Below, piece by piece: positions 8,000-31,065 of a stretch of DNA of 64,000 bases; positions within the stretch are counted from its first letter, which is position 1; every line of letters begins with the position of its first letter. The DNA lies in the NCBI GenBank assembly GCA_964368945.1, contig CAYJDM010000006.1, positions 22,546 through 86,545 on the forward strand. Reading direction: 5' to 3'. The stretch comes from an uncultured Candidatus Saccharibacteria bacterium (GTDB taxonomy: Bacteria > Patescibacteriota > Minisyncoccia > Phycocordibacterales > CAIZLB01). The notes under the pieces were generated by a model that saw only the letters and a program-made list of their open reading frames with translations, was not told the DNA's origin and ran no database searches. The position numbers and the translations under genes are program-made.

Positions 8000-10261
8000 C
8001 TACCAGCCAAACAGCGCTTTGATCGCCTTGAAAATGCTTGCTCCTCCTCCTGATGCCGCATTGCTTATGGAGAATGCCGCATCCGAATAATCAACCTTGG
8101 TTCCGGTACTAGTCGTTACTCCTATATAGATCTTGTAAATCTCGCCGCTATCATATGTGCCTGAGGGGATCGTCCATTGAATGCTGCCATTCGTTATCGG
8201 AATGCGCGTGCCTATATTCGTATAATGCCTTCCATTCTTGAAGACGGCGACCGTTGCTACATGGTCCGAAGTGAGTCCTGATGTGCTCCATGTCACGGTC
8301 AGCGTATCGCCAACCTTGTATGCTCCGCCATTATTCTGAGAGAGGATCGTGATATATCCGCCATTGGTATTTACTGGAGTTGAAGCTGCTGGAGCCTGGA
8401 TCTGTGCGGGCGCCTGAGCCGGAACAGCAACCGGCGTTGGCGTCGGCGTTGGTATTGGCGCAGGAGCAGGCGTCGGAGTCGGAGCCACCGCTGCGGCAGG
8501 AGTCGGCGGAACTACTGCCTGAGCAGCCGGCTTGGCAGCCTGGGCATTCGCGACATCGCTGATTCCAGCCACATTCTTTATCATGAAGCTGTCCCTGAAC
8601 GATTGACTTGCGGGCGGATTGCCATTATCGGTCATGGTCACCGTATATTCATACGTATCAGCATCCAATGCGCCAGGAATCGCTCTGCCATAGTATCTCA
8701 CCGGTTCTTTGAAATATACCGCGCCCGTCGCAGCATCGACCGCTAGCAGATTCGCTCGATCAGATACAGATACCGTAACCTTGTCGCCATCCGGATCTGT
8801 AGGGCTGAATTTGATAAATGGATTGGATGGGCTCGTGACGATTCCTGCGGGCAATACGGAATATCCGCTATCATCCGGCGTCCAATTCGGGCTATTCGGA
8901 TCGAGATACTGCTTGTAATAGCCGCTGGCTTTGCCGAACAGAGGCGCATGATTGAGAGAATATGAATTGAAGCAGCCCAGATCGAATTGCTTGAGCTGAT
9001 ATGTTCCGCCAAGCTCGGTCATGGCGGCATTTATTTCATTTGCAAATTTTCCAAGCAAATAGCCTGAATTCGACTCGGTATGCAAGCCCAGAAGGACAAG
9101 CTGATCCGTAATGACAGCAAGATTAGGTTGCCCAGAATCCCCGTTGACCATTTTCTCGCTCAAATTATTATTCTGATGCATGTCATGCAAAAACAATGTC
9201 GCCGACGGATCGGTGATCAGGACGCCCTGGCTCGTTACGGATTTCAACCCTCCGAACGAATGCAGCAGCGGCCGATCGTTTTTATCCAATGAAATTATGT
9301 CAAAAGGCTGATTGCCCTGATCGGTTCGATATATCTTGCTGAAAGCGGCGCTTGGCATGATCGGATAATACGCGATATCAGCAGGAAGATCGCTGTCCAA
9401 TATGCCCACCGTAATGTCATGCCCTATCGTCTTTACCGCGGTCAATGTCCTGATATACGATGCATTGTCTGGCGAAACAAAGGCCATTTTGGCACCCACC
9501 TGTACGGGATAATGCGAAGCGACGACGATATGCCTCGGCGAGATCAGCGTTCCCGCTTGTCGGTACGGGTATCCATTGCTCGGATGGCTATTGAATGGGG
9601 ATACGCCGCTGAAATCCAATGCGGCTCTCCCCTTCGCAGTCCAAACATCAGGATTTCTTTTCCACGAACCATCGAGCGTCGTGGCCATAACCGACCAGAG
9701 ATTCGATGCGGCGGCGGTCGAATTCGATGCGGCGACGCGGCTTGCCGTCTGTGCCTTCATATGCGTTGCCAGATCTTTCGAGTCCAATTCCGCGCACGAT
9801 ATCGGAGCACTGAGTATGCGCTTCGCTCTCGCTTCGGCATGCCCATTATCCGCATTGGCGAGTCGCGCATTGTCGTTCTGCGGAGCTGCAGGCGCATCGG
9901 GCTTATTGCCGGCATCCACTTTCTTTCCGACGATCCCTGCCGCATTCTGACCTACCAGCCTTTGTATGAGCGCAACGGTCTTTGGCCCGACAGAGCCGAA
10001 ACCATTCGTGGAAGCCGAGCCCGAGCATATCGCCAGGTATTTGCACTGAAGCGATTTGATGGCAGTCTCAGTCGCCTTGCCATAATATTCAGTCTCGCTT
10101 CCTTCGGCTATTACGGGCTGGCCCGCGAGACGCAATGATTTCTGAAGCTCTTTTACGTTCGGATTCTTATCCCCCAATCTCAAAGGCTTTGCATCGGCGG
10201 CAAATACCGTTAGCGGAATTATCAAGGTGATCAGCACGGTCAGGAGCAAGCTTTTTTTCAT
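8000..10261 (-). CDS. secreted multidomain protein: N-terminal peptidoglycan-binding domain, trypsin-like peptidase-like region, Pro/Thr linker, Ser/Thr-rich beta-sandwich C-terminus
   Basis: Signal peptide MKKSLLLTVLITLIIPLTVFAADA. PG_binding_1-like segment LGDKNPNVKELQKSLRLAG...YGKATETAIKSLQ. ISPRHIVVASHY and MVNGDSGQPNL resemble the His (TAAHC) and Ser (GDSGGP) motifs of S1 peptidases. PTPAAAVAPTPTPAPAPIPTPTPTP linker. C-terminal VGDTLTVTWSTSG...GSIQWTIPSG is Kre9/KNH-like. Confidence 0.55.
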   Translation of the reverse strand: MKKSLLLTVLITLIIPLTVFAADAKPLRLGDKNPNVKELQKSLRLAGQPVIAEGSETEYYGKATETAIKSLQCKYLAICSGSASTNGFGSVGPKTVALIQRLVGQNAAGIVGKKVDAGNKPDAPAAPQNDNARLANADNGHAEARAKRILSAPISCAELDSKDLATHMKAQTASRVAASNSTAAASNLWSVMATTLDGSWKRNPDVWTAKGRAALDFSGVSPFNSHPSNGYPYRQAGTLISPRHIVVASHYPVQVGAKMAFVSPDNASYIRTLTAVKTIGHDITVGILDSDLPADIAYYPIMPSAAFSKIYRTDQGNQPFDIISLDKNDRPLLHSFGGLKSVTSQGVLITDPSATLFLHDMHQNNNLSEKMVNGDSGQPNLAVITDQLVLLGLHTESNSGYLLGKFANEINAAMTELGGTYQLKQFDLGCFNSYSLNHAPLFGKASGYYKQYLDPNSPNWTPDDSGYSVLPAGIVTSPSNPFIKFSPTDPDGDKVTVSVSDRANLLAVDAATGAVYFKEPVRYYGRAIPGALDADTYEYTVTMTDNGNPPASQSFRDSFMIKNVAGISDVANAQAAKPAAQAVVPPTPAAAVAPTPTPAPAPIPTPTPTPVAVPAQAPAQIQAPAASTPVNTNGGYITILSQNNGGAYKVGDTLTVTWSTSGLTSDHVATVAVFKNGRHYTNIGTRIPITNGSIQWTIPSGTYDSGEIYKIYIGVTTSTGTKVDYSDAAFSISNAASGGGASIFKAIKALFGW

Positions 10262-10349
10262 ATATGATATTTATTGTGTATGTCGAATAATCATATCACA
10301 AACGATATGCTTCGCTTTTCCGAGGATCCTCTTGCACCCCCACTCATCT

Positions 10350-11186
10350 CTACCCGCCCCTCTTATCCTGCGCATGGCTTTCCGCCTCGGCCTTTGTCAC
10401 GCCAACGAAATTGGATGATCCGTCTGCGCCCTGGACGAGCTTATAGTATGTAGTCGTCGTAGCGGATTTTCCTTTTTCATCATATCTGACGATATCCCTG
10501 AAGTAATATCCCGTATCGTCCGGATTGCCCACGCCGTCCTGTTGCTCGACTTCGGCCAAATACCATCCCTGGCTGCCAAATCTGAAAGTATTGACGACAT
10601 AGATATCGCCCACGCCTCGGCCCTTGTAGAAGCTGTAGATTTCGCGCTTGTCCTTATCGAATTTCGCCAGTGACAATTCAGTGTAATCAGTGGAATCCGG
10701 ATTCCCAACGGTTCCATGCGGCCTCGCATCGATTTCGTACAATCTGAAGGCATGCGTCTGGGGGTTTTGAACATAAAATCTCGTACCGACATTGTATGCG
10801 CCAGCCATATACGAAAGCATCAAATCATCATATCCGTCGAAATTCACATCCATGGCCTGAATCCATGGATTATAGAATTCGCCTTCCTGCCAAAACAGCG
10901 GCGCTTTCACGATGCTTCCATCCGCGAATGTTATGACAGCGCCTTTGACCGTCTTATCGATCAGCGCTTTGAACTGCTTTGATTCGCCATAATCGCCGGT
11001 ATGATCCGCATCCACCGGCGCCATATCTTCCGTGCTGGATGCATTTGATTGGCCGGCATTATCCTTCACGACCTGCTCGATATCGACAGTCTGCGCATTT
11101 CGCTTGATATAGCTCGATATTGATGCCCATCCAATGAGCACGATTGCGAGTATGAGGATGAGCCATGAGATATGGTGTTTTTTCAT
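10350..11186 (-). CDS. membrane-anchored hypothetical protein (possible FG-GAP-like repeats)
   Basis: N-terminal TM/signal anchor HISWLILILAIVLIGWASI. Repeats DVNFDGYDDLMLSY, GNPDSTDY, GVGNPDDTGYY. Confidence 0.45.
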   Translation of the reverse strand: MKKHHISWLILILAIVLIGWASISSYIKRNAQTVDIEQVVKDNAGQSNASSTEDMAPVDADHTGDYGESKQFKALIDKTVKGAVITFADGSIVKAPLFWQEGEFYNPWIQAMDVNFDGYDDLMLSYMAGAYNVGTRFYVQNPQTHAFRLYEIDARPHGTVGNPDSTDYTELSLAKFDKDKREIYSFYKGRGVGDIYVVNTFRFGSQGWYLAEVEQQDGVGNPDDTGYYFRDIVRYDEKGKSATTTTYYKLVQGADGSSNFVGVTKAEAESHAQDKRGG

Positions 11187-11190
11187 ATAT

Positions 11191-11400
11191 TTATATTAAA
11201 GCATCTATGCTTATCAATATGAACAGACCAGGGACAGCGATCTGTGAATTCACATCGCAGAATTTGCTTGTCTTTGTATAATCATCGGGCGCATTGAATG
11301 GCGGCTGTGTCGTATATGTATGGCAGTATTTCGACTCTATGCCAGCAGCAATTAGCGATATGCCGATGAGTATAGCGGCTATGAGTAGGATTTTTTTCAT
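11191..11400 (-). CDS. small secreted/membrane hypothetical protein (69 aa)
   Basis: Signal-peptide-like MKKILLIAAILIGISLIAAG. Tightly spaced between neighbouring minus-strand genes. Confidence 0.35.
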   Translation of the reverse strand: MKKILLIAAILIGISLIAAGIESKYCHTYTTQPPFNAPDDYTKTSKFCDVNSQIAVPGLFILISIDALI

Positions 11401-11409
11401 ATCATGCTC

Positions 11410-11607
11410 TTATTTTAATAATTCCAATGCCTGATCAAAATCTGTTTTAAGAACCATAAGATCTGCGCCATATCTATCATCGGGGATACCGCTTGAGTGA
11501 ACGCCATTAGTCTGGACCCGACTTTTTATTCCATATGCCTGTAACATATTTTTTGCCATTTCAGCTTCTATCGTTGTCGCAAAGCTTTTTATCTTGATCT
11601 CTTCCAT
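11410..11607 (-). CDS. small DUF2007-like (putative signal-transducing) protein, 65 aa
   Basis: MEEIKIKSFATTIEAEMAKNMLQAYGIK...DDRYGADLMVLKTDFDQALELLK resembles DUF2007 family members from memory. Lies 6 nt downstream of gap. Confidence 0.4.
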   Translation of the reverse strand: MEEIKIKSFATTIEAEMAKNMLQAYGIKSRVQTNGVHSSGIPDDRYGADLMVLKTDFDQALELLK

Positions 11608-11612
11608 TTTTA

Positions 11613-12644
11613 TTAAATTAATTTACCGGCCTCCACAACATGTCGCACAAGCGAATGAGTGTATCCGCCCTCATTGTCATACCATGCAAGAACCTTTACC
11701 AATGTGCCATCTACGACTCGCGTCATCTTGAGGTCCGCAATCGATGCATGAGGATTGCCGATGATGTCTCGAGATACGAGCTCTTCATCAGTCGCCTCGA
11801 AGATCCCCTTCCATCGAGGCTCAGAGGCAGCGGCTCGGAGGAGCGCATTCACTTCTTCTACAGTCGTAGGCTTTGATGTGATAAAAGTCACATCGCACAA
11901 AGATCCGGTAATGACAGGAACTCGGACAGAGATGCCATCGAACTTGCCTTTGAGATCAGGGATGACTTTCGTAACCGCAATCGCAGCACCAGTAGATGAT
12001 GGCGCCATATTCATAGCAGCCGCTCGGCCTTCTCGCCAATCCTTCTTGTTCGGAGCATCCACGAGTGCCTGGCTTGCAGTATATGCATGCGTCGTATTGA
12101 GGATGGCCTTCTCGATTCCGATCTTTTCATGAAGGATTGAGATTACAGGGCTTGCGGCATTCGTCGTGCAAGATGCATTCGATGTGATGGCGCATGTCGC
12201 GAGAGCGGGCTGATTGATTCCCATCAATACCGTCGCATTCGCAATCGCTCCGGTTGGATCATCTTTGGTTGGAGCAGATACGACCACTCTCTTCGCGCCG
12301 GCTGTAATATGCGCATTGGCTTTGTCAGCCTGAGTAAAAAATCCGGTAGACTCGAGAACGATATCGACGCCGAGATCCTTCCATGGAAGAAGGGCTGGAT
12401 CTTTTTCGCTCAAATATTTCACAGTCTGACCATTGATGCTGAGCGTATTGCCTGCCTTGTCAGCTTTCACATCGAGATCGCTTCGGCCATATGCGCTATC
12501 GTATTTCATCAAGTATGCGATATTCTCGATATCCGCAAGGTCATTGATGGCAACGACTTCGAGCGTCGGCTCCATTACTGCTAGTTTGAGAAAAGCACGT
12601 CCGATTCGTCCTGCCCCATTGATTGCTACTCGTTTTTTTGTCAT
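11613..12644 (-). CDS. gap: glyceraldehyde-3-phosphate dehydrogenase, type I
   Basis: N-terminal Rossmann motif VAINGAGRIGRAFLK. Active-site SNASCTTNAASP. Confidence 0.9.
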   Translation of the reverse strand: MTKKRVAINGAGRIGRAFLKLAVMEPTLEVVAINDLADIENIAYLMKYDSAYGRSDLDVKADKAGNTLSINGQTVKYLSEKDPALLPWKDLGVDIVLESTGFFTQADKANAHITAGAKRVVVSAPTKDDPTGAIANATVLMGINQPALATCAITSNASCTTNAASPVISILHEKIGIEKAILNTTHAYTASQALVDAPNKKDWREGRAAAMNMAPSSTGAAIAVTKVIPDLKGKFDGISVRVPVITGSLCDVTFITSKPTTVEEVNALLRAAASEPRWKGIFEATDEELVSRDIIGNPHASIADLKMTRVVDGTLVKVLAWYDNEGGYTHSLVRHVVEAGKLI

Positions 12645-12672
12645 TTCTGTATATGTTGATTATTGAAATTAT

Positions 12673-12690
12673 ATGCAGAAATTATAGCAC
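12673..12690 (-). promoter_or_regulatory. extended -10 promoter (TGCTATAAT) for gap
   Basis: Minus strand reads GAAAGTGCTATAATTTCTGCA about 30 nt upstream of the gap ATG. The plus-strand complement ATTATAGCA is at about 12681-12689. No clear -35 element. Confidence 0.5.
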
Positions 12691-12703
12691 TTTCGGCTTA
12701 TTT

Positions 12704-15700
12704 CTATAAACCGAGCAAAGCCCTTGTTTTTGGCCCTACGAGGCCCCACCCCGTTGATACGGGATTTCCATAGCAAATGATTACCTTGTCGCATTGGAAT
12801 TTCTTTACGGCAGTCTCAGTAGTTGGGCCGAATACATCCGTCTCTGCCGCCGCATTTGCGGGAACGTCAGGAGCAGATCCATATGGGGCAAAATATCCCA
12901 GCGCCCGCAATGCTGTTCGGAGGGTTTTTACCAAAGATCCTTTGGAGCCGAGCATGAGCGAAGGCTTCTTCGGAGCCGCGGGAGCAGGATCGTTTGCCGG
13001 CGCAGCGGCATCGCTGCCATTCGCGGCATTCACGCTCGCTCTAGTTGCGGGACCGAATCTTCCTGCTGGCGGCTGGATGCCCTTCGATGCCTGGTATTTT
13101 GCTACCGCGGCCTTCGTCGCGGCTCCGAACGATGTCGTTTCTTTTCCCGGCGAGCCTGCGCCGCTCTGCGCGACCCTGAAGCCGTTGGCATTGAGGAAGA
13201 TTTGCAGCTGGCGCACGTCTTCTCCAGTCGAGCCGACAGAAAGATCCCGGAGGAATCTGTATGCATTGCCGATGCCTGATCCGTTTACGCCTGCGGGATT
13301 CGCTCCTGCCCAAGCCGTGCATCTCTGTCCCGTCGCATTGCTGAAGATCTGGCCCACGAGGCAGACGACCGGCGCGCCAGGATTTGCTGCAGTCGATGTC
13401 GCGGTCGATGATCCGTTTCCATAAATGATCGTGATGTTGCCGCCGGATGAATATCCTCCGCCTCCGCCGGACGATCCTCCTCCCGATCCGCCAGAACCTC
13501 CGCCATTTCCAGGATCCGGTGGCGTCACCACTATGACGCCCAATTCCGGATATCCATCAGCCACCTTGAGCCAAGTCGTATTGAAGTTCCATGAATCCAG
13601 TGGGGCATTCGTATTGTTGTTCTTGAAATAGTCGGAATTGTCTTCTATGCCTGTGCAGCCTGCTGGATCAGGATCCAGGTCGCTAGTACATAATCGATTG
13701 CTCGCAAGGGTTTTGTCATAGAATGAATTAGTGAAGGTCGAAACGTCTGCCGCATACCCTGTCATGGCCCCGACATACAGATCATCGCTTGAAGATGTCG
13801 CTATCGATACCGCCGCAAAAGAGTTATTGATATTTGTTCTAGCGGATCCCACAAGGCCTGCAACACCCTGGACCACATTGGGATTAGCGACGCTTGCGAC
13901 GATGTCGCCAGCGGCATAACTTTTTGAAATTGTTGCGCCTGCCCCATCGGTACCGATGATGCCTCCGATATAATTCACATAAGACTGGGTGGAGGTAGCA
14001 TGGATTGCCCCTGTCCAATAGCTATCCGAAATCGAGAGAGGCGCTGTAACGCTACCAATAATTCCACCAACTGTATCGATATACCCGCTGTCAGCAGAAA
14101 GCATAAGGCCGACTTCAGTTGAGGTCTTGCTGATCGTCCCGCCGGTATGCTGACCAATAAGTCCCCCTATGTCTTGCAGCTCGTTGGTGCTAGTCGCATT
14201 TATGCGCCCAGACACATGCATATTCTCGAGAGACCCCTGTCCGTCAGCAGTGTAGCTATATCCGAATAAGCCGCCGACACTAGTCATTCCGCTTACCGAG
14301 ACAAGCTGCATGTCTGTTAGAACTATAATATTTTCTATTGCCTGACTCTGATTTTTACCAGCGAATCCGCCGATATAGCTACCGCCGCCGAAATCGATAG
14401 CTAATGTGCTGGATGCATAGATATCGTGAGCACTTTCTTCAAATCCAAATAATCCCGCGAAGCCTCCGATTTGGGTAACGCTGGTATCGCTTTGCAGACT
14501 CACATTGACCGTTGAGGTCGCATTCGCCATTGAGGGTCCATGCAGCTCTCCGGCAAAGCCTCCAATACCCTGAGGACCTCCGACGCTTACGATTTCAACA
14601 GACCCTGATGCAGAAATAACACTGAAGTCGGCAATGGCATATCCAAAGAGACCGCCAACTGCGTATGCGGAATTAGAAGCATTTATATGCATATCAACAT
14701 CGGCGATTGCATTGCTCATAGAAGCCCCGGCAAATTGCCCGAACAGGCTTCCGGTATAGCTGACACCCTGTCCCGTGATGTCGATACTGCCGGTCGAAGA
14801 AACTGTATGCGCGATCGCATCGTCGCTGATGAAATATCCAGCCAATCCTCCAACATATGACAGATCACTATCAGACTGCAGATTCATATCCATGGTCGAG
14901 CTAACATTTACGAAAGATAACCCCGTGAAATACCCTATGACACCTCCAAAATATGAGCCGGCGGACGAAGATGCATTGATATTTCCAGACGACGAGCTTG
15001 AAGCGATGAGGCTTTCGCCATTGTCGTTGTCGATCTGGCCGACAAGTCCGCCAGCCCCATATGCAGATCCAGAATTTGCAGCAGCTGATATCGTTCCAGA
15101 ATAGTGGCTATTGGTCAATGTCACTTTTGCCCCAGTGCCGACCCCAAGCAAGCCGCCGGCATGACCCTGATTCGACTGCACAGTTCCCACACTCGATACA
15201 TCGTCCATGACAAGATCTGACGAATTCGAATACCCGACAACTGATCCCACATATTCATTGCCAGAAACAGATCCGCTGATATTGAAATTGCGGAATACGC
15301 CGCCAGATACATATCCGAACAGACCTACGAAGTCCTCATCTGGTCTATCTATGTTCAAGCCCGAAATCGTATATCCGTTTCCGTCGAACGAGCCGGTAAA
15401 CGGATTGCCGACGGTACCCACAGGAATAAACCCTTTGCCATCATTATCAGGATCGAAGCCGGTACAATCTATATCGTTCGCCAATACAAATGAGGCATAT
15501 AAGTCTTGAGACATGGCCTGCAATTCCGTACATGTCGTGATTGACACAAGTGACTTCGCGGTAAATGACTGAATGGCTCCGTACGCTGTTCCGACCGGAT
15601 TCTTGCTATATGCCTGGAAATAATATGTGGTTCCTGTTACCAGTCCCGTTATTTCCTCTGAGAAATTCCCAGTTCCAGTAAATGCACCAAGCGTAGTTGT

Positions 15701-18700
15701 TGAAACGCCCGTCGAGAGATCGCTCACAGTGCCATATATGAAGCCATGCTCAGTGGCATCCGCGCCCATAATATCGTCTATGCTGCCATTTAGGGTCGCA
15801 CTTGAATTAGTTACAAGCGAGGCACTTCCCGTAGTTACAGACTGAACATTATTCGTCAAAAATGATAGCCTCTGCCCGTATTCTATGCCTGTGCCATTGT
15901 TGGCATATGCGCGGAAATAATATGTCGTACCTGGAGCCAATCCGGAAATATTCGCAGAATAATCTCCGACTCCGACAAATGTGCCAAGTGTAGTCGTGGA
16001 AACGTCGCTAGAGAAATCGTTCGCCGTGCTGTATGCAAATCCATGCTGAAATGCATCAATGCCACTTATGTCATATATCGAGCCGTGCAAAGTTGCGGTC
16101 GTGCCCAAAACAGAAGTTGCCGGATGCGTAAGCGGCGCAATGATAGGAGCATAGATCTTTATGCGATTATTCGAGGTATCGGCGATGTACAGAAAACCGC
16201 GAGGATCTCGGAAAATACCCCCAGGGAAGCTGAATTGGTCGGCGCCTGATCCCTGAGAACCGAAACTCTTTATAAATATTCCGTCAGGTGAGAATTGCTG
16301 AACGCGATGGTTGTATGTATCGGCTATATATGCGATGCCGGTTGAAGTAGAGACGGTCACATCTTGCGGTCCTAGAAATCCGGGACCCCCGCTTACGAAG
16401 AACTGGAATACTCCAGCTGAATTGAACTTCGATACGCGATGATTGAGGAAGGTGTCTGTTATATAAATATTGTCTTCGGCATCAATTGCGACTCCATAAG
16501 CGCCTCCGTATTGACCATTGCCGCTTCCTGAGCTGCCGATATTCGTGATAAATGATCCATTTGAATCAAATTTCATGACTTTGGTAGGACCAAGGTCCGC
16601 TACATAAATATTGCCCATGCTGTCCAAGGCGATTCCCTCGACCTGATTAAATATGCTTGCATTCCCGAATTGCGAAAGATACGCTCCATTGGCATCAAAC
16701 TTCTGAACCCTCTTATTGCCAAAGTCAGTCACATATAGATTTCCGGAATGATCGATCGCTATATAGCGAGGAGAATTGAATTCGCCATCGCCAGAGCCCG
16801 ATGTGCCGAATTGCGATAGGTAATTTCCTGCGGCATCAAATTTCTGAATGCGATTATTGCCGGTATCCACTACGAAAATATTTCCATTGGAATCCGTGAC
16901 CACGCCTCTCGGACCGCTGAACTGCCCATCACCGGAACCAGACGTTCCGAATGAAGTATTGCCATCATTATCAGCGATCGTTATGGTGACCGATGAAACC
17001 GCCGCCTCATTGAAATCCGGATCTGAAGATGCGGCAGTTCCTGTGACAGTAACTGTCTTGATATTATTGTAAATACTGTCATCAATTGCAGAAACCGTTA
17101 CCGTCTGGGGCTGGTCCCAATCGCCTGATGTGAATGTGAGCATTTGCGGAGAGATTGATGCACCAGACCCCGCAATCGGAGTTGATGTAGCAAGCGTGAT
17201 CACGACATCGCTAGAAGGCTGCTGCTCCAGTACTATGTCGAATGAGTCATCGGATCCCCCTTCAGTAAGCGATATATCGGTCGGTGTGACGCTGACAGGA
17301 GAATTTCCAAATACCGGATAGTCGTTCGTCACGGCCTTCCATACATCAACGAAATCCCATGAGCTCATTGGCTCATTTATATTATTGCCCTTGAAATATT
17401 CTGAGTTGCCCGTAATGGCGGTACAACCGGATGGATCTGATTGATCGCTGCCGCTGCAATAATCTTGGCCGCTTAGTGTTTTGTCATAAAAGTTATTCGT
17501 AAGAACGGTGCCATTATCTCCTATAAAGGCACCGACATTCGTAGCAGGATCAACAGAATTCATAGAGAATGCAACAGCCGCAAATGAATCCGCGATATGG
17601 TCTCCAGACATTGAACCTGCCAAACCGCCGACGCTCTCGATTACAGAGCTTGAATCGAGAGCGATATTTCCGACAGTATAGCTTCGATTGATTGAAGAAG
17701 CTCCTCCTATTCCGATAATGCCACCGATATCCGAAACATAGGAGAGCTCAGAAGTCAGATCCATATCGCCCGTCCAATATGCATCAGAAATAGCGACATC
17801 GTAGTTACTGTCAAAGCCGATAAGTCCGCCAATGCGATCTATGTGTCCGTCTGAAACAATGTGAATGTCAACCGAAGAATTGCTTCGCTCAAAAGTCGCC
17901 CCGACATAATATCCAAAGATGCCAGCCACATCCTCGACTCCAATATCAGGATCACCCGAAGTTGATTCGATATCGATGCTTCCAGACGAGGAGACATTTT
18001 CCGCAGATGCACTTGGTTCAGTCCAGTATCCAACCAATCCGCCAATATGATTGGAATTCGAATCAGACACGATGCTTATGATTGCAGATGAGCTGCTATT
18101 GTTTATTGACGCACCAGCGTATTCACCTACGAGTCCTCCGATATCGCTTCCAGATCCTGTAAAATTGAAATTCATATTGCCCGATACTGAGCTTGATTCT
18201 ATATAACTGCCAGACGCATTAACACCTCCTATCAAACCTCCGAAACACGATGCGCCCGTCTGAGTTACCACTTCAATATTTCCTGAATAATGACCATTAG
18301 TAACCGTGATAATGGACACGCCTGTTCCTACCAACCCTCCGACACAGTCGGCAGAACCAGTAATCGCAACGGAGCTGTTCACATTTTCGATTACGAGATC
18401 CCCTCCATTTTGATTTGAATATCCGACGAGAGATCCGATCACGCCAGATCCGCTTATCGATCCGGCAATAGTCACATTGCTGAATGATCCTCCCGTCACA
18501 ACTCCGAACAGACCCACGTTTTCTTCCTCAGGCCGATTTATTGTCAGGTTCGAGATGGTGTGGCCGTTTCCATCGAATGACCCTCTAAACTCATCGCTTA
18601 GATTTCCGACAGGAATGAATCCCTTGCCATTATTCTCAGGATCGAATCCCGTACAATCGATATCGTTCGAAAGCGTATAATCTTGCGTTAGATCATAGGC

Positions 18701-19093
18701 CATCGCCTGGAGCTCGCTGCAATTCGTGATCGCTGCGTTAACGGGGTCCCCATCATCGGCGATCTCTACCGTGACAAGGCTCACAAGTCCGTCGAAAGAT
18801 ACATCGGACGAAGTCGACGAAGCCGTAATGGTGATAGTTCGAGTACCCGACTGAATGGCATCATCTATCGCGGAAACCGTAACCGTCTGAGGCTGATCCC
18901 AATCGCTTGGCGTGAAAGTCAGCAGTTCAGGCGATACGGTCGCACCCGAACCATTGCCCGGAGTCGAAGTCGCAAACGTTATCACGACATCGTCGGTCGG
19001 CGCTTGCTTGAGCTTGAGCGTGAAAGTATCGCTAGATCCTTCTTCGATTCCAAGATCAGTTTTGGAAAACTTGAACAAAGGATCTCGAAGCAT
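12704..19093 (-). CDS. giant cell-surface protein, C-terminal 2129 aa portion: Calx/Ig-like domains, 2 GLUG-motif beta-helix modules, 6 NHL repeats, 2 Ig-like domains, Gly linker, 2 C-terminal peptidoglycan-binding domains
   Basis: NHL repeats ([34 protein letters not shown] and five more). Repeated G-L-x-G blocks (VGGLVG, IGGLIG) after a conserved CSELQAM...NDIDCTGFD...[15 protein letters not shown] module, present twice. [17 protein letters not shown] linker. Two PG_binding_1-like domains at the C-terminus ([22 protein letters not shown]..., [23 protein letters not shown]...). There is no signal peptide at this ORF's own N-terminus, so it probably continues from the upstream 971 aa ORF (see findings). 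Confidence 0.85.
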   Translation of the reverse strand: [2129 protein letters not shown]

Positions 19094-19226
19094 CGGATAA
19101 TCATCCGTATCAGTAACCGTGACCCAGACGCTGCTGAAATTCCATTGATCGAGCGGCGGATTAGTGCTATTGCCCTTGAAATACCCTGAATCGTTCTCGA
19201 TCGCCGTGCAGCCCGCAGGATCAGGA

Positions 19227-22103
19227 TCATCGATGATCGTTGCAGAAATCCTGGCCGCTTAGTGTTTTATCAAAAAATGTATTATCAAAGCTCGCATAAT
19301 CGGAACCCGTAACCGCGCCGATATTCGAAGTCGGATTCACAGAAACGACCGTTATGCCCACGGCCGAGAACGAATCGACATATTGCGCCTGAATATCATA
19401 TCCTGTCATTCCTCCTATGTTTGAAACCGCATCAGCGGAATCAAGCCACATCTGTCCGGCAGCATATGTCCGCGTGAATATCGATGGATTGGTATCATGG
19501 TACCCAATCATTCCTCCCACGAATGCGATATATGCGCCAGTGCCTGTGGCATTGATCTGGCCACTCCAGTAGCTATCCGTGAAAGAAAGCGCCATCGACG
19601 ATTGGCCTACGAAGCCGCCTACATATGCCACTTCGGCATCCGAATCGAGATGCATCTCGACCGAAGATCTGCTGCGCGCAAATGAAATCTCACTGGCTTC
19701 GCCTTCAGCGAATCCCGTCATGCCGCCGATATCATAGATTTCCGCTGAATCGATCGTGATGCTTCCCAATGCCTGGACGTCATCTATATTGCCTTCGGGA
19801 TATATATATGAATATCCGTTCAGACCGCCGATATACGTAACGGCTCCGCTCGGAGCCTGGATCTCGATATCGGCATCGGCTATAGAATCCGTAATCGAGC
19901 CGGCCCCATAGTCTCCGAACAGGCCTCCTATGAGCGACACGGGGCCATTCGACTCTGTATGTATGGTCCCTGAATATGAGACGCCATCAACGATTCCCAC
20001 TTCATTGTAAAATGCGCCGACCAAGCCTCCGACATTCGCAACCTGGCCGCTCGCATCGGTTATGATGCTTATATCCATGGTCGAGCTGCTATTCGTGATC
20101 GAGGCTCCTTCGAAATAAGCGACCAAGCCTCCCACATCGCTAGACTGCGATGCATTCACATGATTAAAAACAATCGCGCCAGAAGCCGAGCTGTCCGAGA
20201 TGGTGCTGCCGCTTCCACCGCCGCCTGCAGAAAGTCCGCCTATCGAATCAATCTGGCCTCCGTCTCCATCGACTGTTATCGTACCGTCATAGTGGACATT
20301 CGTAAGCGTGGAATCAGGACCGAGATCCATGCTCGCTATCACTCCTCCGACGCCGGTGCCATGCCCAGTCACGTCAGCGGAAGAGAAAACATTCTCGACC
20401 ACAAGATCGTTCGTATCGGAAAGCCCGATAAGGGAACCGACATTGCCAAGCCCTTCCACGTTTCCGGCAAGGCTCACATCCTTGAATGTTCCGCCCTGCA
20501 CATATCCGAACAATCCTACATAATACTCATCAGGCCGTGCAATCGTAAGATTCGAAATAGTGTGTCCATTTCCATCGAATGATCCGGTAAACGGAATGCT
20601 ATCGTCTCCAACAGGCCGGAACCCCTTGCCATCATTGTCGGCATCGAAGCCGGTGCAGTCGATATCGTTCGAAAGCTCATAAGACGCTCCGAGACCTTCG
20701 GACATCGCCTGCAGCTCAGCGCAGTTCGCGATCGGCAGTGCTTCATTGTCCGAAACAGTGACGACGACATTGGAAATGATAACGCCGTTGAAATCACTAT
20801 CCGCTGAAGAGACAGACGCCGAGACATCTACGGTTCTCTGAGGATTTCCGACTCCATCATCAATACCCGTAACGGTTACGGTTTGCGGCTCATCCCAATT
20901 TCCAGGCATGAAGGTAAGCACCTCTGGGGAAATTGACGCGCCTGCCCCAACGCCAGGAGTCGAAGTCGAAAGAGTCACGATTACGTCATTTGCAGGCTGT
21001 CGATCGAGCACGTACGTAAATGTCGAAGAATCTCCTTCCTCGACGGAAAGCGCATTTACAGATGGGCTCACAAGCGTCGGGATGAATTTTTGAATACGCC
21101 CATTGTTCCCATCGGTCACGTATATATTGTTGGCGGCATCAAAAGCGGTCGCTTGCCCACTATTGCCAAATTCCCCATCACCGGATCCATCTGATCCGAA
21201 CTCAAATAGATATTTTCCGTCGTTGGTAAACGCTCTAATGCGCGCATTTGAGGAGCTTGTAACGTAGACAGTTCCATAATTATCTATTGATACGTCTTGA
21301 GCCCTGCCCAAGTCCGCATTTGATTGAGCGTCGAGACCGGGCTGACAATCTGAAGTACATACCTGATACTCCCTGTTTCCGTCGATAACGCCTTGGCCAA
21401 AGGTCAGAATAAAATTACCGGCGGAATCGAATTTCTGGACGCGATGAGCATTGTATTCGGTGACGAAGATGTTTCCAGAAGCATCTACTGCTATGCCTTG
21501 CGCGGCCGAAAACTGATTATTGCCGAATTGAGAAATATAATTCCCATCAGAATCAAACTTTTGAATCCGTGAATTATCGCTATCAACAACGAGAATGTTG
21601 CCAGACCCGTCAATCGCGATATCATGCACGAATCCGAATTCGCCGTCGTCGCTGCCTGCAGGGCCGCCGATATAGGAAACAAAATCGCCATTTGAATCGA
21701 ATTTCTGGACGCGACTATTGAGCTCGTCAGCCACGTATACATTCCCGGAAGAATCCACTGCTATCCCCTGAGGGCCGTTGAACTGGCCATCGCCGGAACC
21801 AAAGGAGCCGAATTGAGAAATGTATGTCCCCGTAGGATCGAATTTCTGCACCCGATGAGAAGTGCTGTCAGTGACATATATATTCCCTGCGCTATCCAAT
21901 GCGATGCCGAACGGACGATCGAACTGCCCGTCACCGGAACCCGCTGAACCGAATTGGCTCGCATACTGCATTCCTGCTTTGACTTCGTTTGGGGAGAAAA
22001 GCGTACTGACTAAACCTATTACCATGACTGCAACTAGAGCAAAACGCATCGGATATGCCAAAACCCTTCGCTTTGATTTTTTTAAATTAAAGAGTTTCAA
22101 CAT
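19227..22103 (-). CDS. giant cell-surface protein, N-terminal portion: signal peptide, 6 NHL repeats, Calx/Ig-like domain, GLUG module; ends in a premature stop in the middle of a conserved module
   Basis: Start placed at the ATG at 22103 ([43 protein letters not shown], a signal peptide). The ORF-track start at 22142 is GTG. NHL repeats ([33 protein letters not shown] and others). The same CAELQAM...DIDCTGFD...[11 protein letters not shown] GLUG module as the downstream ORF. The ORF stops at ...[15 protein letters not shown], in the middle of the motif that continues in the other frame. Confidence 0.8.
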   Translation of the reverse strand: [958 protein letters not shown]

Positions 22104-22217
22104 ACTTAAAAATACTGAGTTCGCCAAAGCGAGGGACAGCACATATATGCCAAATTATATCATGCGGGAGGCATGATTCTCAGTAAAACGTTGAAAACTA
22201 TGGCTATTTGCGTATTT

Positions 22218-24124: not shown

Positions 24125-24580
24125 TCAGGCCTTGATGCCGGCGACGAGGCCGGCTGCCACAGGATCGTCATCCAGAATCCCGGAGCTGATGATACGGGCG
24201 AGCAGATGACTGTCGGCGCCGGCGCCGATGATTCCCGGTGGACCGTCATTGCCATCGCCGATGCCGATGATGCTGCCGCCAATGACGAGGTAGGTTTTGC
24301 TGTCCGAACTGATCGCATTTGCTTTCAGTCCATTGTTCACGGTATCCCCAGGCAAAAAAGGCGGAGCCTGGTATTTGACGGCGAAGACCTCCAGAGAGGC
24401 CGTGGCACTGGCCATATCATTAGCCATGGCATCGTAGCCCGAGTCGTAGAGACTCTGAACTCCTGCGGCCCGGATGATCGGCTCAGGCATGGGCGGAATA
24501 TCAGGGGCGGCCCTGGCCTGCAGCGGGATGCTGACGGAAAGCAGCGCGAGCGCTGCGAGGGTGAGTGTGCGATTCATGGT
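24125..24580 (-). CDS. small secreted hypothetical protein (about 151 aa)
   Basis: Start placed at MNRTLTLAALALLSVSIPLQARA, a signal peptide with an AxA cleavage site. The ORF-track start at 24715 adds 45 residues with no signal peptide. Local GC is clearly above the window average. Gly/Ile-rich C-terminus (VIGGSIIGIGDGNDGPPGIIGAGA). Confidence 0.45.
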   Translation of the reverse strand, partial: TMNRTLTLAALALLSVSIPLQARAAPDIPPMPEPIIRAAGVQSLYDSGYDAMANDMASATASLEVFAVKYQAPPFLPGDTVNNGLKANAISSDSKTYLVIGGSIIGIGDGNDGPPGIIGAGADSHLLARIISSGILDDDPVAAGLVAGIKA

Positions 24581-24763
24581 ATTTTCTGGGTTCTGTATTT
24601 TCGGGTTCGGGTTTACTGACTCAGACAGCTCATAGCACGCGCTGTTATGCGCATGGGAAAGAGCTGCATCCAATGCTACACCCGCCAGACTGATCGTCAA
24701 GCGGGTGCTGTGCATTTTTTTATACCGGCATCCTGATGCGAAAAACTCGCGGATCAGGAGCGA

Positions 24764-25804: not shown

Positions 25805-25855
25805 AATGGTTGGAGTGTAGCATATTATTGCGATTTGGCATCATCTTTCAAGATA

Positions 25856-25895: not shown

Positions 25896-25935
25896 TTCCA
25901 AGCTAAAACCTTGCCTTAACTTTATTATTTTTTGC

Positions 25936-26729: not shown

Positions 26730-26758
26730 ATTATACATTTTTTAAGTGTATTTGTCAA
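26730..26758 (-). promoter_or_regulatory. consensus sigma70-type promoter: TTGACA, 17 nt spacer, TGTATAAT (extended -10)
   Basis: Minus strand reads TTGACAAATACACTTAAAAAATGTATAAT. The plus-strand complement has TGTCAA at about 26753-26758 and ATTATA at about 26730-26735. The predicted transcript start near 26722 gives a leader of about 165 nt before the ATG at 26556. Confidence 0.6.
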
Positions 26759-26783
26759 TCACTTACGCATCTCTGTAGAGAAG

Positions 26784-27875: not shown

Positions 27876-28987
27876 TATCGTGCGGACTGATTTATCTTTT
27901 CAGGAGAAACCACGACATTGTTTTCCTGTGCCTTCTCATCGCCGCTGAACATTTTTACCAAAACGAATAGGATGCTGAGAACGAGCGGGCCGAGGATGAA
28001 CCCTTCAGGGCCAAAGAACTGAATGCCGCCCAATACAGAGAAGAGGATGAGCAGAGGATGAATATTGATTCCTTTTTCCAAAATGATGGGACCGAGGAAA
28101 TTATCGATGAGTCCGACAAGCAGCATTGACCAGAGTATCTGGCCAACAATGGCCCACATGGGCGCGCCCGTCGCCACGAGGAAAATTACCGCAGGGATCC
28201 AGACCAAAGCCGTACCGACTCCGGGAACGAGCGCGCATACCGCAGCAACCGTTCCCCACAATGTGGCATTCGGAATCCCAAAAATCGCGAATCCTATTCC
28301 TACCAGCACGCCCTGTATGAGCGCGATGACGAGCGAGCCGGCTACGACAGAACGCACCGCCGTATTCACTGACTTGATGAAAGATTCATCCTTGCTCTTG
28401 CTCCAAGGCGTAAGGGCGATGATATGAGCCTTGAGTTTTTCTCCATCTCTCAAGAAATAGAAGAGCGCGACGAATGCCAGAGCGAGCTTCAGAACGAAAT
28501 CGATAGTGCCTGAGAATATTCCGCCGAGCTTCGAGACGACCCATGAAGAGAATCCCGCGAGATATGATTTGGTATCGATAGTGAATTCAGGCAGGAATCG
28601 CTGCGCCTTCCCTTCTACCCAATTCGTAATGCCGTCAGACGTAAGCGCATCCGATGAGCTGACATGCGTATAGAGCTGCTGCGCCTGATCGACGATCGTA
28701 TTGGTAACGAGGATGAGAGGCAGGATGATTATGATGACCAAAAACGCAACCGTGAGCAGCGCCGATAAGCCGTCTCTTTTGACGCCCTTGCGAATGCGCC
28801 TGAATACAGGGCTGAGCAATATCGCGAGGATCAATGACATCGCGATCACGCCGAAGAATGGCATGAATACGAAGAATGCCAGGATGAATACGATGACGAA
28901 TATTATGGTCGAAAAAACCTGCTGTTGCTTATTTGTTGAGGCGTTCATAGGCACAAGTATACCAAAATCCCTCAAAAAACAACCCAT
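27875..28987 (-). CDS. AI-2E family transporter (UPF0118/PerM-like)
   Basis: 370 aa polytopic membrane protein. Typical AI-2E N-terminus (FSTIIFVIVFILAFFVFMPFFGVIAMSLILAILLSPVFRRI) and C-terminal hydrophobic helices. Confidence 0.75.
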   Translation of the reverse strand: MGCFLRDFGILVPMNASTNKQQQVFSTIIFVIVFILAFFVFMPFFGVIAMSLILAILLSPVFRRIRKGVKRDGLSALLTVAFLVIIIILPLILVTNTIVDQAQQLYTHVSSSDALTSDGITNWVEGKAQRFLPEFTIDTKSYLAGFSSWVVSKLGGIFSGTIDFVLKLALAFVALFYFLRDGEKLKAHIIALTPWSKSKDESFIKSVNTAVRSVVAGSLVIALIQGVLVGIGFAIFGIPNATLWGTVAAVCALVPGVGTALVWIPAVIFLVATGAPMWAIVGQILWSMLLVGLIDNFLGPIILEKGINIHPLLILFSVLGGIQFFGPEGFILGPLVLSILFVLVKMFSGDEKAQENNVVVSPEKINQSAR

Positions 28988-29003
28988 CCGCTTCCTTGCA
29001 GCA

Positions 29004-29033
29004 AAAAAGACCGCCCTTTGCGGAGCGGCCTTT
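29004..29033 (-). terminator. putative intrinsic terminator after the 29056-31065 gene
   Basis: AAAAG-A-CCGC...GCGG-C-CTTTT hairpin with flanking A and T runs. Imperfect. Confidence 0.4.
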
Positions 29034-29055
29034 TCAGATCAGGGTCTGCCTGCTA

Positions 29056-31065
29056 TTACCAAGGGGTTACCGTGAACGTAGGGCTTTCAGCGTCGATATA
29101 CGAAGTATTGTTTGCTGGATATGTTCCATAGCCCAGGCCGAAGACCTTGAGGAAGTAGCCCGACTTGAGCTCTTCCTTCGTCTTGCCGGTTCGCGTCACG
29201 AATCGATTGACTATCTCATTCGTTATCTTGACCGGAGTGCCAGTCGCAGTGACGGTCGTCTGAGGAACCATGACTTCCCACTGTCCAGGAGAAAGCTTAT
29301 TCTGAAGCTGAACCTGGAATCCATAATGGCGGAACTTTGCGAGATTTCCGAATACCCAAGTCATATTGATATCAGGAGATGTGCTTGCATATGCGAATCC
29401 CGCGACCGGAGCAGTTACTCGGAGATATGGATTCGTGCTCGAAGCTTCCGCAGCCGTAGCGCCGGTAGTTCCTGTCGTCCCGGTTGTTCCAGTTGATGCG
29501 GTGTCGTATGCGAATACGAATTTGTCTCCATTATTTCTTGTCAAAACCATTCGGCCATTTTCGAGAGAAACCGTCGCGCCTGATGTCATCATGGCTATGA
29601 ATGAAGTTTCGGCAGGGGCGATGATAGCTGCCGTGCAGGCCATCATCGTAGATGTGAGATTAGGGGCAGTGATCACATTGCCCGTTCGAGTGAATGAGCC
29701 CGAGATCGAATTGCAGATATTCGCAGAAAGCGTTCCATTTCCTGTTCCATTGCTTGTGAATGTCAACGACGGAGTCTGCATAGGCGTAGTGAAGTCTCCA
29801 TTGAATGAAAGGAGCTTGAATGGAGTCGATGCGAGATATACGAGATTCGTCCCAGTATTGCCAGTTCCTGTATTCGTATTGGTATTCGCAGGCGCATTCG
29901 GATTCGTCACCGTGATCACGCCGCTTTCATCATATGCGAGCGCGCTCCACTGCGTTGGGCTTCCGCTCGTCTCGCCTGCCGGTCGCAAATATACTCGGAC
30001 CTTGTACGTTCCACCTGGAATATCAGAAGGCACAGGAATGGTAGTCGTCACATTAGAGACCGGATTATTCGGAGTGAATGATCCTAGAGAATATCCGCCT
30101 GAAACAGAATCATAGTAAGAGCCATCGCCTGACAAAGCCGAGCCAGACTGCGGGATCAGATAGAATGACAATGAATATACCTTGTCGGATGAGATCGTGC
30201 TCTGATATGCAAAGCTTCCTCCCGCGGCAACCGTTCCCGATGTCGGCGAAGTGATATCGATCATGGCAGCGCCAGTGCTGCCCGTATTTCCTCCATTCGC
30301 AATATCGAAGACCGTGAATTCTGAGCTGAAAGCCTGTCGGCACTGGATGCTCGAAAGCGCTGTACAAGAAGGGGTCACTTTTATCTTATATGTGAAATCC
30401 TTATTCAATGCGGAAGACAAAGTGAATGTCGAAGTTTTTCGTCCTGCTGCAGTCGCATATACCGTGCCGAATCGCTGGAATACGGTATCGCCTCGCACCA
30501 AGTCCACTGCATATGACATCCATGTCGGATTGCTCGTAGGATTCGGAACCGGATTATCAATCGATACGGTAATAGTTCCTCCGGCCGTATATCGATCATA
30601 TCGCGTCGGAGAGCTGACGATGATTCCGAGGGCTGGATTCGAAACCGTAGACCCTGTCGATCCGGTGCTGCCCGTTCCGGCAGTAGGATCAGTTGGCACT
30701 ACGCTAGAGTTGGGATTACAGCTGATTTCTCGAATCTTTTCTCGAGTCAAAGATCCCACATATCCTGCAGGGCTAGCCGGGATATTGTACTGTCGCTGGA
30801 ATGCGCTGGCCGCATTTCGCGTCTGAGGGCCAAAGAGGCCATTCGGAGTCGCAGCGAGATAGCCCGCGCTTTTCAGAAAGTTCTGGAGAACCGTAACCGC
30901 TCCGCCTGTAGAGGCATCAGTCATCGGATATTTCAAATTGACCGCGATATTCGCACAAGCCATGGTCGAAGCCGTCTGCGCATTCGCAGAAGTCGCTCCA
31001 GCCGTGGCGCTAATAAAGAATGCTAATAAAAATACTAGTGTCTTGTAAACGTGAACTTTTTTCAT
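29056..31065 (-). CDS. secreted protein with N-terminal peptidoglycan-binding domain and repeated Ser/Thr-rich beta-sandwich domains
   Basis: Signal peptide MKKVHVYKTLVFLLAFFISATAGATSANA. PG_binding_1-like segment YPMTDASTGGAVTVLQNFLKSAGYLAATPNGLFGPQTRNAASAFQ. TGSTGSTGST and TGTTGTTGTTG linkers. Repeated Kre9/KNH-like domains. Confidence 0.6.
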   Translation of the reverse strand: MKKVHVYKTLVFLLAFFISATAGATSANAQTASTMACANIAVNLKYPMTDASTGGAVTVLQNFLKSAGYLAATPNGLFGPQTRNAASAFQRQYNIPASPAGYVGSLTREKIREISCNPNSSVVPTDPTAGTGSTGSTGSTVSNPALGIIVSSPTRYDRYTAGGTITVSIDNPVPNPTSNPTWMSYAVDLVRGDTVFQRFGTVYATAAGRKTSTFTLSSALNKDFTYKIKVTPSCTALSSIQCRQAFSSEFTVFDIANGGNTGSTGAAMIDITSPTSGTVAAGGSFAYQSTISSDKVYSLSFYLIPQSGSALSGDGSYYDSVSGGYSLGSFTPNNPVSNVTTTIPVPSDIPGGTYKVRVYLRPAGETSGSPTQWSALAYDESGVITVTNPNAPANTNTNTGTGNTGTNLVYLASTPFKLLSFNGDFTTPMQTPSLTFTSNGTGNGTLSANICNSISGSFTRTGNVITAPNLTSTMMACTAAIIAPAETSFIAMMTSGATVSLENGRMVLTRNNGDKFVFAYDTASTGTTGTTGTTGATAAEASSTNPYLRVTAPVAGFAYASTSPDINMTWVFGNLAKFRHYGFQVQLQNKLSPGQWEVMVPQTTVTATGTPVKITNEIVNRFVTRTGKTKEELKSGYFLKVFGLGYGTYPANNTSYIDAESPTFTVTPW

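Follow-up and report, generated by a model that had tools for sequence, protein, structure and literature searches.

Within a 64,000-nucleotide (nt) stretch of contig CAYJDM010000006.1 (assembly GCA_964368945.1; the whole stretch is hereafter called the window), three minus-strand genes combine a signal-peptide-like N terminus with one or two copies of the peptidoglycan-binding domain PG_binding_1. Their products are a protein with a protease-like region, a giant protein built of NHL and GLUG modules, and a protein with a META domain (Table 1). Our preferred reading, which we hold with modest confidence, is that these genes encode accessory surface proteins held noncovalently on the bacterium's own murein, where they would display dissimilar passengers. 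The Sec pathway would export each protein by way of its N-terminal signal peptide, and the PG_binding_1 modules, which immediately follow the signal peptide in the protease and META proteins and form a pair at the C terminus of the giant, after a flexible Gly-rich linker, would retain the protein on the cell's own peptidoglycan. The passengers so displayed would be a divergent chymotrypsin-fold serine protease followed by cadherin/Ig-like spacers, a region of ~3,100 amino acids (aa) with two six-bladed NHL propellers, three GLUG β-helices and Ig/fn3 spacers, and a META-domain protein with Ig-like spacers, respectively. Export, self-wall anchoring, and adhesive and proteolytic function are predicted here from sequence. 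A Sec signal combined with a wall-binding module at one terminus and with variable passengers corresponds to the design of noncovalently wall-bound surface proteins.

The preliminary description of this DNA had proposed PG_binding_1-type modules in three secreted proteins with large adhesin-like passengers, and profile searches agree with both points: the modules reach the Pfam gathering cut-off (23 bits for PF01471) in all three genes, and the passenger regions are adhesin-like or enzymatic. The two copies at the C terminus of the giant open reading frame (ORF) score 64.4 bits when the whole ORF is searched and 72.3 bits when its C-terminal piece is searched, and the single copy in the META protein (aa 54-110) scores 41.9 bits. 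In the protease protein, the module scores 22.5 bits on the whole protein, slightly below the cut-off, and reaches 26.6 bits when only the N-terminal 154 aa are searched; aa 28-111 of this protein also match the wall-binding part of endolysin families in PHROG (E = 3e-6). A hidden Markov model built from these copies finds no fifth among all six-frame ORFs of the window, a result that speaks only to the lack of a fifth copy and is not independent evidence for the model's own four inputs. The window therefore contains four PG_binding_1 modules in total, all of them within the three named genes. The N termini of the three products resemble signal peptides, with predicted cleavage at MKKSLLLTVLITLIIPLTVFA/AD, MKK…ATSANA/QT and …FALVAVMVIGLVSTLFSPNEVKA/GM, the last being that of the giant gene.

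PG_binding_1 is a three-helix bundle known mostly from hydrolases and endolysins. The modules in the window fall into two subtypes, a canonical form (copy A of the giant and the META protein) and a form with a two-cysteine insertion, QCxxxxICxGxxxxxGxGxVGPKT, placed before the last helix (the protease protein and copy B of the giant). The same insertion is found at the C termini of two homologs (P0003 and P0005). In the META protein, the two Ig-like regions that separate PG_binding_1 from the META domain score below cut-off (Big_5, 19.5 bits; GEVED, 19.3 bits).

Table 1. Features of the window, by position on its forward strand
Position	Strand	Feature	Basis
below 8 kb		Split transketolase, Rpe, RpiB
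8000-10261	minus	ORF, 753 aa, PG_binding_1-protease protein
8000..10261	minus	From N to C terminus: signal peptide, Cys-loop PG_binding_1, linker, divergent chymotrypsin-fold Ser protease, weak cadherin-like repeat, Pro-rich linker, weak Ig-like (Kre9_KNH-like) domain, short amphipathic C-terminal tail
8939..9787	minus	Predicted protease core, aa 159-441	Invariant columns, AlphaFold2, Foldseek, PDB profile matches
9953..10183	minus	PG_binding_1 of protease protein, aa 27-103, Cys-loop insertion before last helix	Pfam, PHROG, alignment to giant copy B
10350..11186	minus	278-aa protein, N-terminal transmembrane helix and XAC2610-family/DUF1176-like domain	NF047539, Pfam DUF1176
11613-12644		GAPDH
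12704-19093	minus	ORF, 2,129 aa, giant ORF as first delimited
12704..22103	minus	Giant adhesin-like gene, ~3,132 aa with both frames joined
12704..22103	minus	Merged map (aa): 1-43 signal peptide; 44-340 NHL x6; 342-454 Ig-like; 456-1000 GLUG β-helix; 1003-1117 Ig-like; 1124-1600 GLUG; 1602-1713 Ig-like; 1716-2000 NHL x6; ~2010-2185 fn3 x2; 2186-2860 GLUG; then Gly-rich linker, PG_binding_1 x2	Self-comparison of product
12710..13243	minus	Two C-terminal PG_binding_1 of giant gene	Pfam 72.3 bits, 2 stretches
12710-12958	minus	PG_binding_1 copy B, Cys-loop subtype
13028-13243	minus	PG_binding_1 copy A, canonical
~13433-13510	minus	Gly-rich linker
13523..15547	minus	GLUG β-helix module 3, longest	Pfam Glug 45.7 bits
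16103..16957	minus	NHL β-propeller 2, six blades	Pfam NHL 125.8 bits
~17303-18733	minus	GLUG module 2	15.4 bits, paralogy
~19103-20738	minus	GLUG module 1	29.8 bits
19225..19245	minus	Frameshift site	…TGC AAC GAT CAT CGA T GAT CCT GAT CCT GCG GGC TGC…
21084..21974	minus	NHL β-propeller 1, six blades	Pfam NHL 139.4 bits
22154..22183	minus	Promoter-like CTGAGA-18-TATAAT with TG, upstream of 22103 start	Consensus match only
22-36 kb		GatB, Obg, MYG1, AI-2E transporter, AIRS-like gene, SecA
29056-31065	minus	ORF, 669 aa, PG_binding_1-META protein
29056..31065	minus	From N to C terminus: signal peptide, PG_binding_1, two weak Ig-like regions, META domain, unassigned C-terminal domain
29521-29835	minus	META domain, aa 411-515	Pfam PF03724 51.3 bits, cut-off 24
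30730-30915	minus	PG_binding_1 of META protein

Accessory genes in a housekeeping backbone

The three PG_binding_1 genes are surrounded and separated by housekeeping genes, one of which, SecA, helps to place the organism. The nearest named relatives of its SecA belong to Candidatus Parcubacteria (60% identity), Pacebacteria (56%), Paceibacterota and Taylorbacteria, and further relatives stand at 84% (L046) and 78% identity. As judged from this protein, the organism is a bacterium of the Candidate Phyla Radiation (CPR) within the Paceibacteria (Parcubacteria), and it is tiny and probably symbiotic. An affiliation with Saccharibacteria, first hinted at by the best protease matches, was set aside, as SecA points instead to Parcubacteria/Paceibacteria. 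The CPR-type lifestyle that had been supposed from gene content fits this placement, in that Parcubacteria are inferred to be ectosymbiotic, with peptidoglycan synthesis in their core genome and with a diverse accessory set of cell-contact proteins that was already noted in 2015 (PMC4508563).

Similar comparisons can be extended to the order of genes. In the relative with 84% SecA identity, the order is SecA-…-AIRS-[PG_binding_1-META]-AI2E-MYG1-…-Obg, and the META gene in it is a syntenic ortholog, 64% identical, with a META domain scoring 52.1 bits. In the two relatives with 78% SecA identity (a JGI contig of 117 kb and NCBI GCA_013565675.1), the order is SecA-…-AIRS-AI2E-MYG1-Obg-x-GatB-(131/146 aa)-GAPDH, and this backbone contains neither the META gene nor the giant gene; toxin-antitoxin genes occupy other gaps in it. 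The three genes are accessory, strain-variable insertions in a conserved housekeeping backbone. The backbone gaps that house PG_binding_1 genes here hold toxin-antitoxin (RelB/YafQ, PemK), NUDIX or Fic genes in relatives (L047/JGI contig, L048); the gaps along the SecA-GAPDH backbone are apparently hot spots for insertion. Because the genes are separate insertions, present or absent independently of one another in relatives, they do not form a co-inherited apparatus, and the earlier grouping of all three into one set does not stand in that sense.

Architecture and interruption of the giant gene

The giant protein corresponds to a FRAMESHIFTED, longer gene (12704-22142) than the ORF at 12704-19093 to which it was first assigned. 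That ORF holds six NHL blades, two GLUG modules, two Ig-like and two fn3 domains, the Gly linker and both PG_binding_1 copies; it starts MLRDPLFKF and has no signal peptide. The preceding ORF (19227-22142) holds six further NHL blades, one Ig-like domain, one GLUG module and the sole signal peptide of the giant gene, a signal-peptide-like N terminus (MLKLFNLKKSKRR…FALVAVMVIGLVSTLFSPNEVKA/GM) with a standard V-x-A cleavage motif. The domain list given in the preliminary description, with 12 NHL blades and three GLUG modules, is accordingly correct for the merged gene and incorrect for the ORF at 12704-19093, which is the 3′ two-thirds of a frameshifted gene and, having no signal peptide, does not qualify as a secreted protein in its own right.

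Most of the constituent modules are recovered by standard profiles. Both NHL propellers exceed the 20-bit cut-off of PF01436 with six blades each, of which a motif pattern finds ten and the two divergent sixth blades were read by eye; propeller 2 is 42-50% identical to propeller 1. GLUG modules 1 and 3 lie above the cut-off of 20.5 bits (PF07581). Module 2 lies below it, though it is 50-54% identical to module 1 over the first ~210 aa and 30-50% identical over the whole module, so that its assignment depends on paralogy. In the PDB, the GLUG modules have a weak match to the helix at the N terminus of the pneumococcal IgA1 protease (E = 3e-4), and the fn3 region scores 27.2 bits in Pfam. The Calx-β assignment fared less well: the best of the three Ig-like modules scores 16.6 bits (E = 0.008) against a PF03160 cut-off of 27, and a PDB sequence search with these modules gives nothing significant. 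An AlphaFold2 model of an Ig-like module is of moderate quality, with a predicted local distance difference test score (pLDDT) of 73 and a predicted template modeling score (pTM) of 0.65. Foldseek aligns this moderate model with the CBD1 domain of NCX1/CALX (TM-score 0.61-0.68, E ~1e-4) and, about as well, with generic Ig-like sandwiches such as SbsC and PapD-like chaperones. The modules would therefore be Ig-like and, at the level of fold only, Calx-like.

The architecture as a whole suggests an adhesin. No ortholog of the whole giant was found; the best non-self alignment covers ≤16% of the query, all matches are NHL proteins, and the combination of NHL, GLUG and PG_binding_1 occurs in none of the best 120 matches. 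The NHL/GLUG/PG_binding_1 giant is unique in the databases searched. A Cys-bracketed motif, C-x2-G-x2-F-S-x2-TG-x2-C, precedes its first PG_binding_1 copy (~13300-13360, minus strand) and recurs ahead of a PG_binding_1-like segment in a Nomurabacteria locus (L006, 10723-11799) that adjoins a homolog of the protease.

The interruption lies near the end of GLUG module 1. The upstream frame ends at a TGA (19227-19229), such that the ORF at 19227-22142 finishes with …FFDKTLSGQDFCNDHR and the stop, and the +1 frame continues as …DDPDPAGCTAIENDSGYFKGN…DDYPMLRDP, which is the conserved cap that ends the other two GLUG modules. At the site itself, conserved Cys codons are 31 nt apart, and the corresponding distance in both paralogous modules is 10 codons, from which it follows that the lesion is a single inserted base. 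As read, the sequenced gene would yield only an unanchored N-terminal fragment of 971 aa and a C-terminal part that is devoid of an export signal.

It is possible, if doubtful, that the inserted base stems from an error in the consensus or assembly, or from a minority allele, and that the gene is intact and encodes one secreted, wall-bound protein of 3,132 aa. The lesion is one nucleotide in 9.4 kb that are otherwise free of stops, and the paralogous modules show the frame running cleanly on past the site. Weighing against an error is a Logan contig (ERR4405439_141128) that corresponds to positions 12005-20555 of the window and is identical over 8,551 nt, inserted base included; as an independent assembly of run ERR4405439 carries the same base, the lesion is present in the read consensus, where it could represent a minority allele or a systematic error. 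In addition, the site is not a homopolymer and has no known slippery or recoding signature. Other explanations were considered and rejected. Reading the UGA at 19227-19229 as a sense codon gives a frame that is unlike the paralogs and meets more stops, and Paceibacteria are not a code-25 lineage; a programmed frameshift is disfavored by a CGA-UGA-U site without slippery re-pairing; and a pair of functional genes fits poorly with a downstream ORF that starts inside a module cap and has neither a signal peptide nor a promoter-like site of its own. No promoter-like site was found ahead of 19093, and one lies upstream of the 22103 start, in a region where the total of such sites is not above that in shuffled controls.

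The NHL and GLUG duplications had been put forward as recombination substrates for size or phase variation, an idea that the DNA does not bear out. At the protein level, identity between paralogous modules is 30-54%; at the DNA level it is 65-83% over stretches of 32-220 nt. Exact repeats within the 9.4-kb gene reach at most 21 nt, and the three genes contain no tandem repeats, the single array within 8000-31100 residing outside them at 24579-24608.

The protease protein and its family

A homology search with the protease protein recovers 16 relatives that share a core of ~280 aa (aa 155-445). The proposed catalytic triad consists of His250 (ASHY), Asp282 (DITVG) and Ser376 (GDSGQP), and H250, D282 and G374-D-S-G377 are invariant in all 16 homologs. 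The motifs GTLISPRHIVVASHY, DITVGILD and GDSGQP align with those around His57, Asp102 and Ser195 of trypsin. The protein has no peptidase match in Pfam (including Trypsin, PF00089) or NCBIfam, and a PDB profile search returns nothing significant (E 0.6-1.2), although each of the twenty nonsignificant matches is a protease of trypsin fold whose alignment brings the His and Ser motifs into register. AlphaFold2 modeled aa 155-445 from a 15-sequence core alignment with a pLDDT of 80.4 and a pTM of 0.84, and Foldseek with this model finds 929 PDB matches at E ≤ 1e-3. The 50 that were listed are without exception S1 proteases, among them factor Xa, factor IXa, tryptase and elastase (best E 3.8e-9; TM-score 0.45-0.6). 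As modeled, the domain is a double β-barrel of clan PA with a predicted His-Asp-Ser triad in that order. The original label of a trypsin-like region is therefore right at the level of fold, on the strength of the model and its S1 matches, and does not extend to membership in PF00089 by sequence profile.

By sequence, the domain forms a family of its own, for which neither Pfam nor NCBIfam has an entry. When 1.84 billion representatives were searched with a profile, 4,453 clusters matched at E ≤ 1e-3, and 1,485 did so at E ≤ 1e-30. Among species-representative genomes, its members fall into two groups, one in metagenome-assembled genomes of CPR bacteria (Saccharibacteria, Peribacteraceae, Nomurabacteria) and the other in phyla of the Planctomycetes-Verrucomicrobia-Chlamydiae (PVC) group (Verrucomicrobiota, Kiritimatiellia, Lentisphaerales). 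In CPR members, the protease is repeatedly fused to PG_binding_1, which is N-terminal here and in the nearest relative (P0002, 42% identical and of the same architecture) and C-terminal in five other loci (L003, L005, L007, L009, L010); in PVC-group members, the protease domain is C-terminal and PG_binding_1 is absent. Large proteins that end in PG_binding_1 also adjoin protease-family genes in CPR loci (L003, L009, L049), and the locus of the nearest relative encodes a 1,349-aa protein with Big_7 domains and PG_binding_1. These repeated fusions at either end, together with the adjoining PG_binding_1 proteins, mark PG_binding_1 as a recurrent, portable module on secreted proteins of CPR bacteria.

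Several further observations concern this family. The protease protein ends in a Gly-rich stretch and an amphipathic tail (8000-8060, minus strand; GGGASIFKAIKALFGW), and the tail of the nearest relative is comparable (IFRTLWDWVRGR); the tail may act as a sorting signal or provide a second anchor. In two loci, a protease ORF overlaps a following ORF that bears PG_binding_1 in a different frame (L002, 457-3267 and 2997-4844; L006, 9902-10861 and 10723-11799), and these may be further frameshifted or misassembled genes of this type. The sole phage relative (L050; phage MW202510.1, 5437-6672) resides in a podophage structural module next to a depolymerase-like gene, and is flanked by a gene annotated as rhamnogalacturonan lyase and by an fN3 gene. 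A phage origin of the family was rejected, given that phage relatives amount to one of 50,697 records and that the protease domain has no PHROG match.

Own wall, host wall and known systems

Several lines of evidence favor the bacterium's own murein as the likely target of these modules. The SecA placement in Parcubacteria/Paceibacteria, together with peptidoglycan synthesis in the core genome of that group (PMC4508563), implies that a wall of its own is available. Paceibacteria with highly expressed secreted proteins that contain peptidoglycan-binding domains parasitize methanogenic archaea (Kuroda et al., 2024; PMC10936435). In both the protease and the META proteins, PG_binding_1 follows immediately upon the signal peptide, and neither protein has an evident second anchor. 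Methanogenic archaeal hosts are not known to have murein, and hosts of that kind favor self-anchoring. A number of points weigh on the other side. PG_binding_1 has been described chiefly from wall hydrolases and endolysins, in which it serves to target a substrate rather than to anchor passengers; the N-terminal hydrophobic segment of the giant could be an uncleaved membrane anchor that leaves the distal PG_binding_1 pair free for the wall of another cell; and the amphipathic tail of the protease protein might serve as a second anchor. Furthermore, no peptidoglycan synthesis genes of the organism occur in the window, and the frameshifted giant, the largest member of the set, may be nonfunctional in the sequenced population.

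Another explanation, which we consider unlikely, is that the murein bound by the PG_binding_1 modules is that of a bacterial host. In this case the giant would serve as a tether, with an N-terminal signal-anchor in the symbiont membrane, a stalk of β-helices and propellers, and the PG_binding_1 pair at its distal end, and the protease would degrade the host envelope or serve in feeding. Such a role is in keeping with the CPR lifestyle, with published proposals that proteins with peptidoglycan-binding domains are host-attachment factors (PMC10936435), and with the accessory, lineage-specific distribution expected of host-range determinants. The resemblance of the N-terminal module of the protease protein to endolysin wall-binding domains also speaks for it, as does the protease relative in a podophage structural/tail module beside a depolymerase-like gene, a setting that hints at an activity against foreign envelopes. 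Yet in two of the three proteins PG_binding_1 stands right after a cleavable-looking signal peptide with no clear second anchor, the giant N terminus carries a standard cleavage motif, the published hosts are the archaea mentioned above, which are not known to have murein, and nothing in the window points to a host. The attachment apparatus of the preliminary description is for these reasons not favored over self-anchoring, and it is retained as a rival. Its fullest form, in which the modules are aimed at bacterial host murein, the genes are host-range determinants, the ~3,100-aa giant is a membrane-rooted tether and the PA-clan family of ~4,450 clusters attacks foreign envelopes, strikes us as more improbable still.

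We regard as comparably improbable a role in self-wall remodeling, which would apply mainly to the protease. PG_binding_1 would here direct the enzyme to its substrate on the bacterium's own wall during growth or division, the protease being an autolysin-like endopeptidase of peptidoglycan stems or cross-bridges or else a processing protease for wall proteins, and the XAC2610-like membrane protein encoded upstream its inhibitor. PG_binding_1 is typical of wall hydrolases, weak SleB-like matches are found in NCBIfam, and some S1-fold enzymes, such as the α-lytic-type proteases of Lysobacter, are bacteriolytic. The upstream gene lies on the same strand at a distance of 88 nt, and its product matches NCBIfam NF047539 (38.4 bits; cut-off 35) and Pfam DUF1176 (40.1 bits). 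XAC2610 itself is an immunity protein against a peptidoglycan-hydrolase effector of Xanthomonas. However, no XAC2610-like homolog stands beside the protease family in any of 41 loci, nor is one found beside its nearest relative (P0002). With an adjacency unique to this locus among those examined, the idea of a conserved immunity partner was rejected. Unlike a core wall-growth enzyme, the protease is not kept in close relatives (best match, 42% identical), and remodeling leaves the adhesin-type giant and the META protein unexplained.

The window contains further genes beyond this set. A large surface-polysaccharide cluster (36467-60477) encodes a Wzy_C protein with TPR repeats, a Wzx flippase, glycosyltransferases of families GT1, GT2, GT8 and GT11, FkbM methyltransferases, and a UDP-sugar dehydrogenase with epimerases; its synteny with the closest relative (L046) is partial. 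Adjoining it on the minus strand (60457-63051) is a gene for an 864-aa protein with weak matches to TrwB/VirD4-type coupling proteins of type IV secretion and to HerA-like ATPases. The window contains no tRNA genes and no Rfam family above threshold.

Secreted proteins with peptidoglycan-binding domains are already known as candidate attachment factors in Paceibacteria (PMC10936435), and NHL, GLUG, fn3, META and PG_binding_1 are standard domains. The closest parallel is with the parasitic Paceibacteria (Ca. Yanofskyibacterium, Microsyncoccus and Minisyncoccus; Kuroda et al., mBio 2024, PMC10936435), members of the same bacterial class, whose extracellular proteins join a peptidoglycan-binding domain to Ig-like or other adhesion folds and are proposed to act in cell-cell interaction. 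Those proteins were picked by expression, whereas the present ones are known from their genes alone and likened by domain content, and neither the NHL/GLUG giant architecture nor the fusion to an S1-like protease is described there. A second parallel is with Gram-positive surface proteins, which share the signal peptide, the terminal and often duplicated wall module, the variable passengers, and accessory, fast-evolving genes. The noncovalent wall anchors of Gram-positive bacteria are SLH, LysM, CWB2 and GW; the module here is instead PG_binding_1, with a putative binding specificity.

The individual passengers likewise have known counterparts. The giant resembles the streptococcal IgA1 protease/ZmpA family (PDB 6XJA/6XJB) in its GLUG modules, of which 1 and 3 are above cut-off, and in weak NCBIfam matches to ZmpA, but it has no M26 metalloprotease domain and no LPXTG motif, and its three helices are interleaved with NHL propellers. 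It also resembles giant NHL surface proteins of CPR and other uncultured bacteria (such as P0063, 3,624 aa, Ca. Saccharibacteria; P0061, Ca. Doudnabacteria), which are multi-kilodalton, secreted and equipped with six-bladed NHL propellers. The protease domain shares with S1 proteases (MEROPS clan PA) the two-barrel fold, the His-Asp-Ser order, GDSG, and TAAHC-like and DIxLL-like motifs; it differs from them in having no significant match to Pfam Trypsin, NCBIfam or PDB sequences, in reaching a TM-score of only 0.45-0.6, and in a conserved N-terminal extension of ~80 aa (W207, D216, SPWNS). What is new is this particular NHL/GLUG/PG_binding_1 giant, broken in the sequenced population, and the recognition of a PA-clan protease family without annotation, repeatedly joined to PG_binding_1 in CPR bacteria.

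These genes bear on how CPR/Patescibacteria attach to partners and decorate their walls, a field in which few surface proteins are experimentally tractable. For annotation, the locus holds a lesson, in that what the public record presents as the giant protein is the tail of a gene with a frameshift, with the signal peptide and a third of the domains in the preceding ORF. The locus further brings to light a serine-protease family of considerable size that Pfam and NCBIfam lack, and it offers three separable test objects with a common anchoring module. That module, PG_binding_1, is portable across CPR lineages, at either end of a protein and with many passengers.

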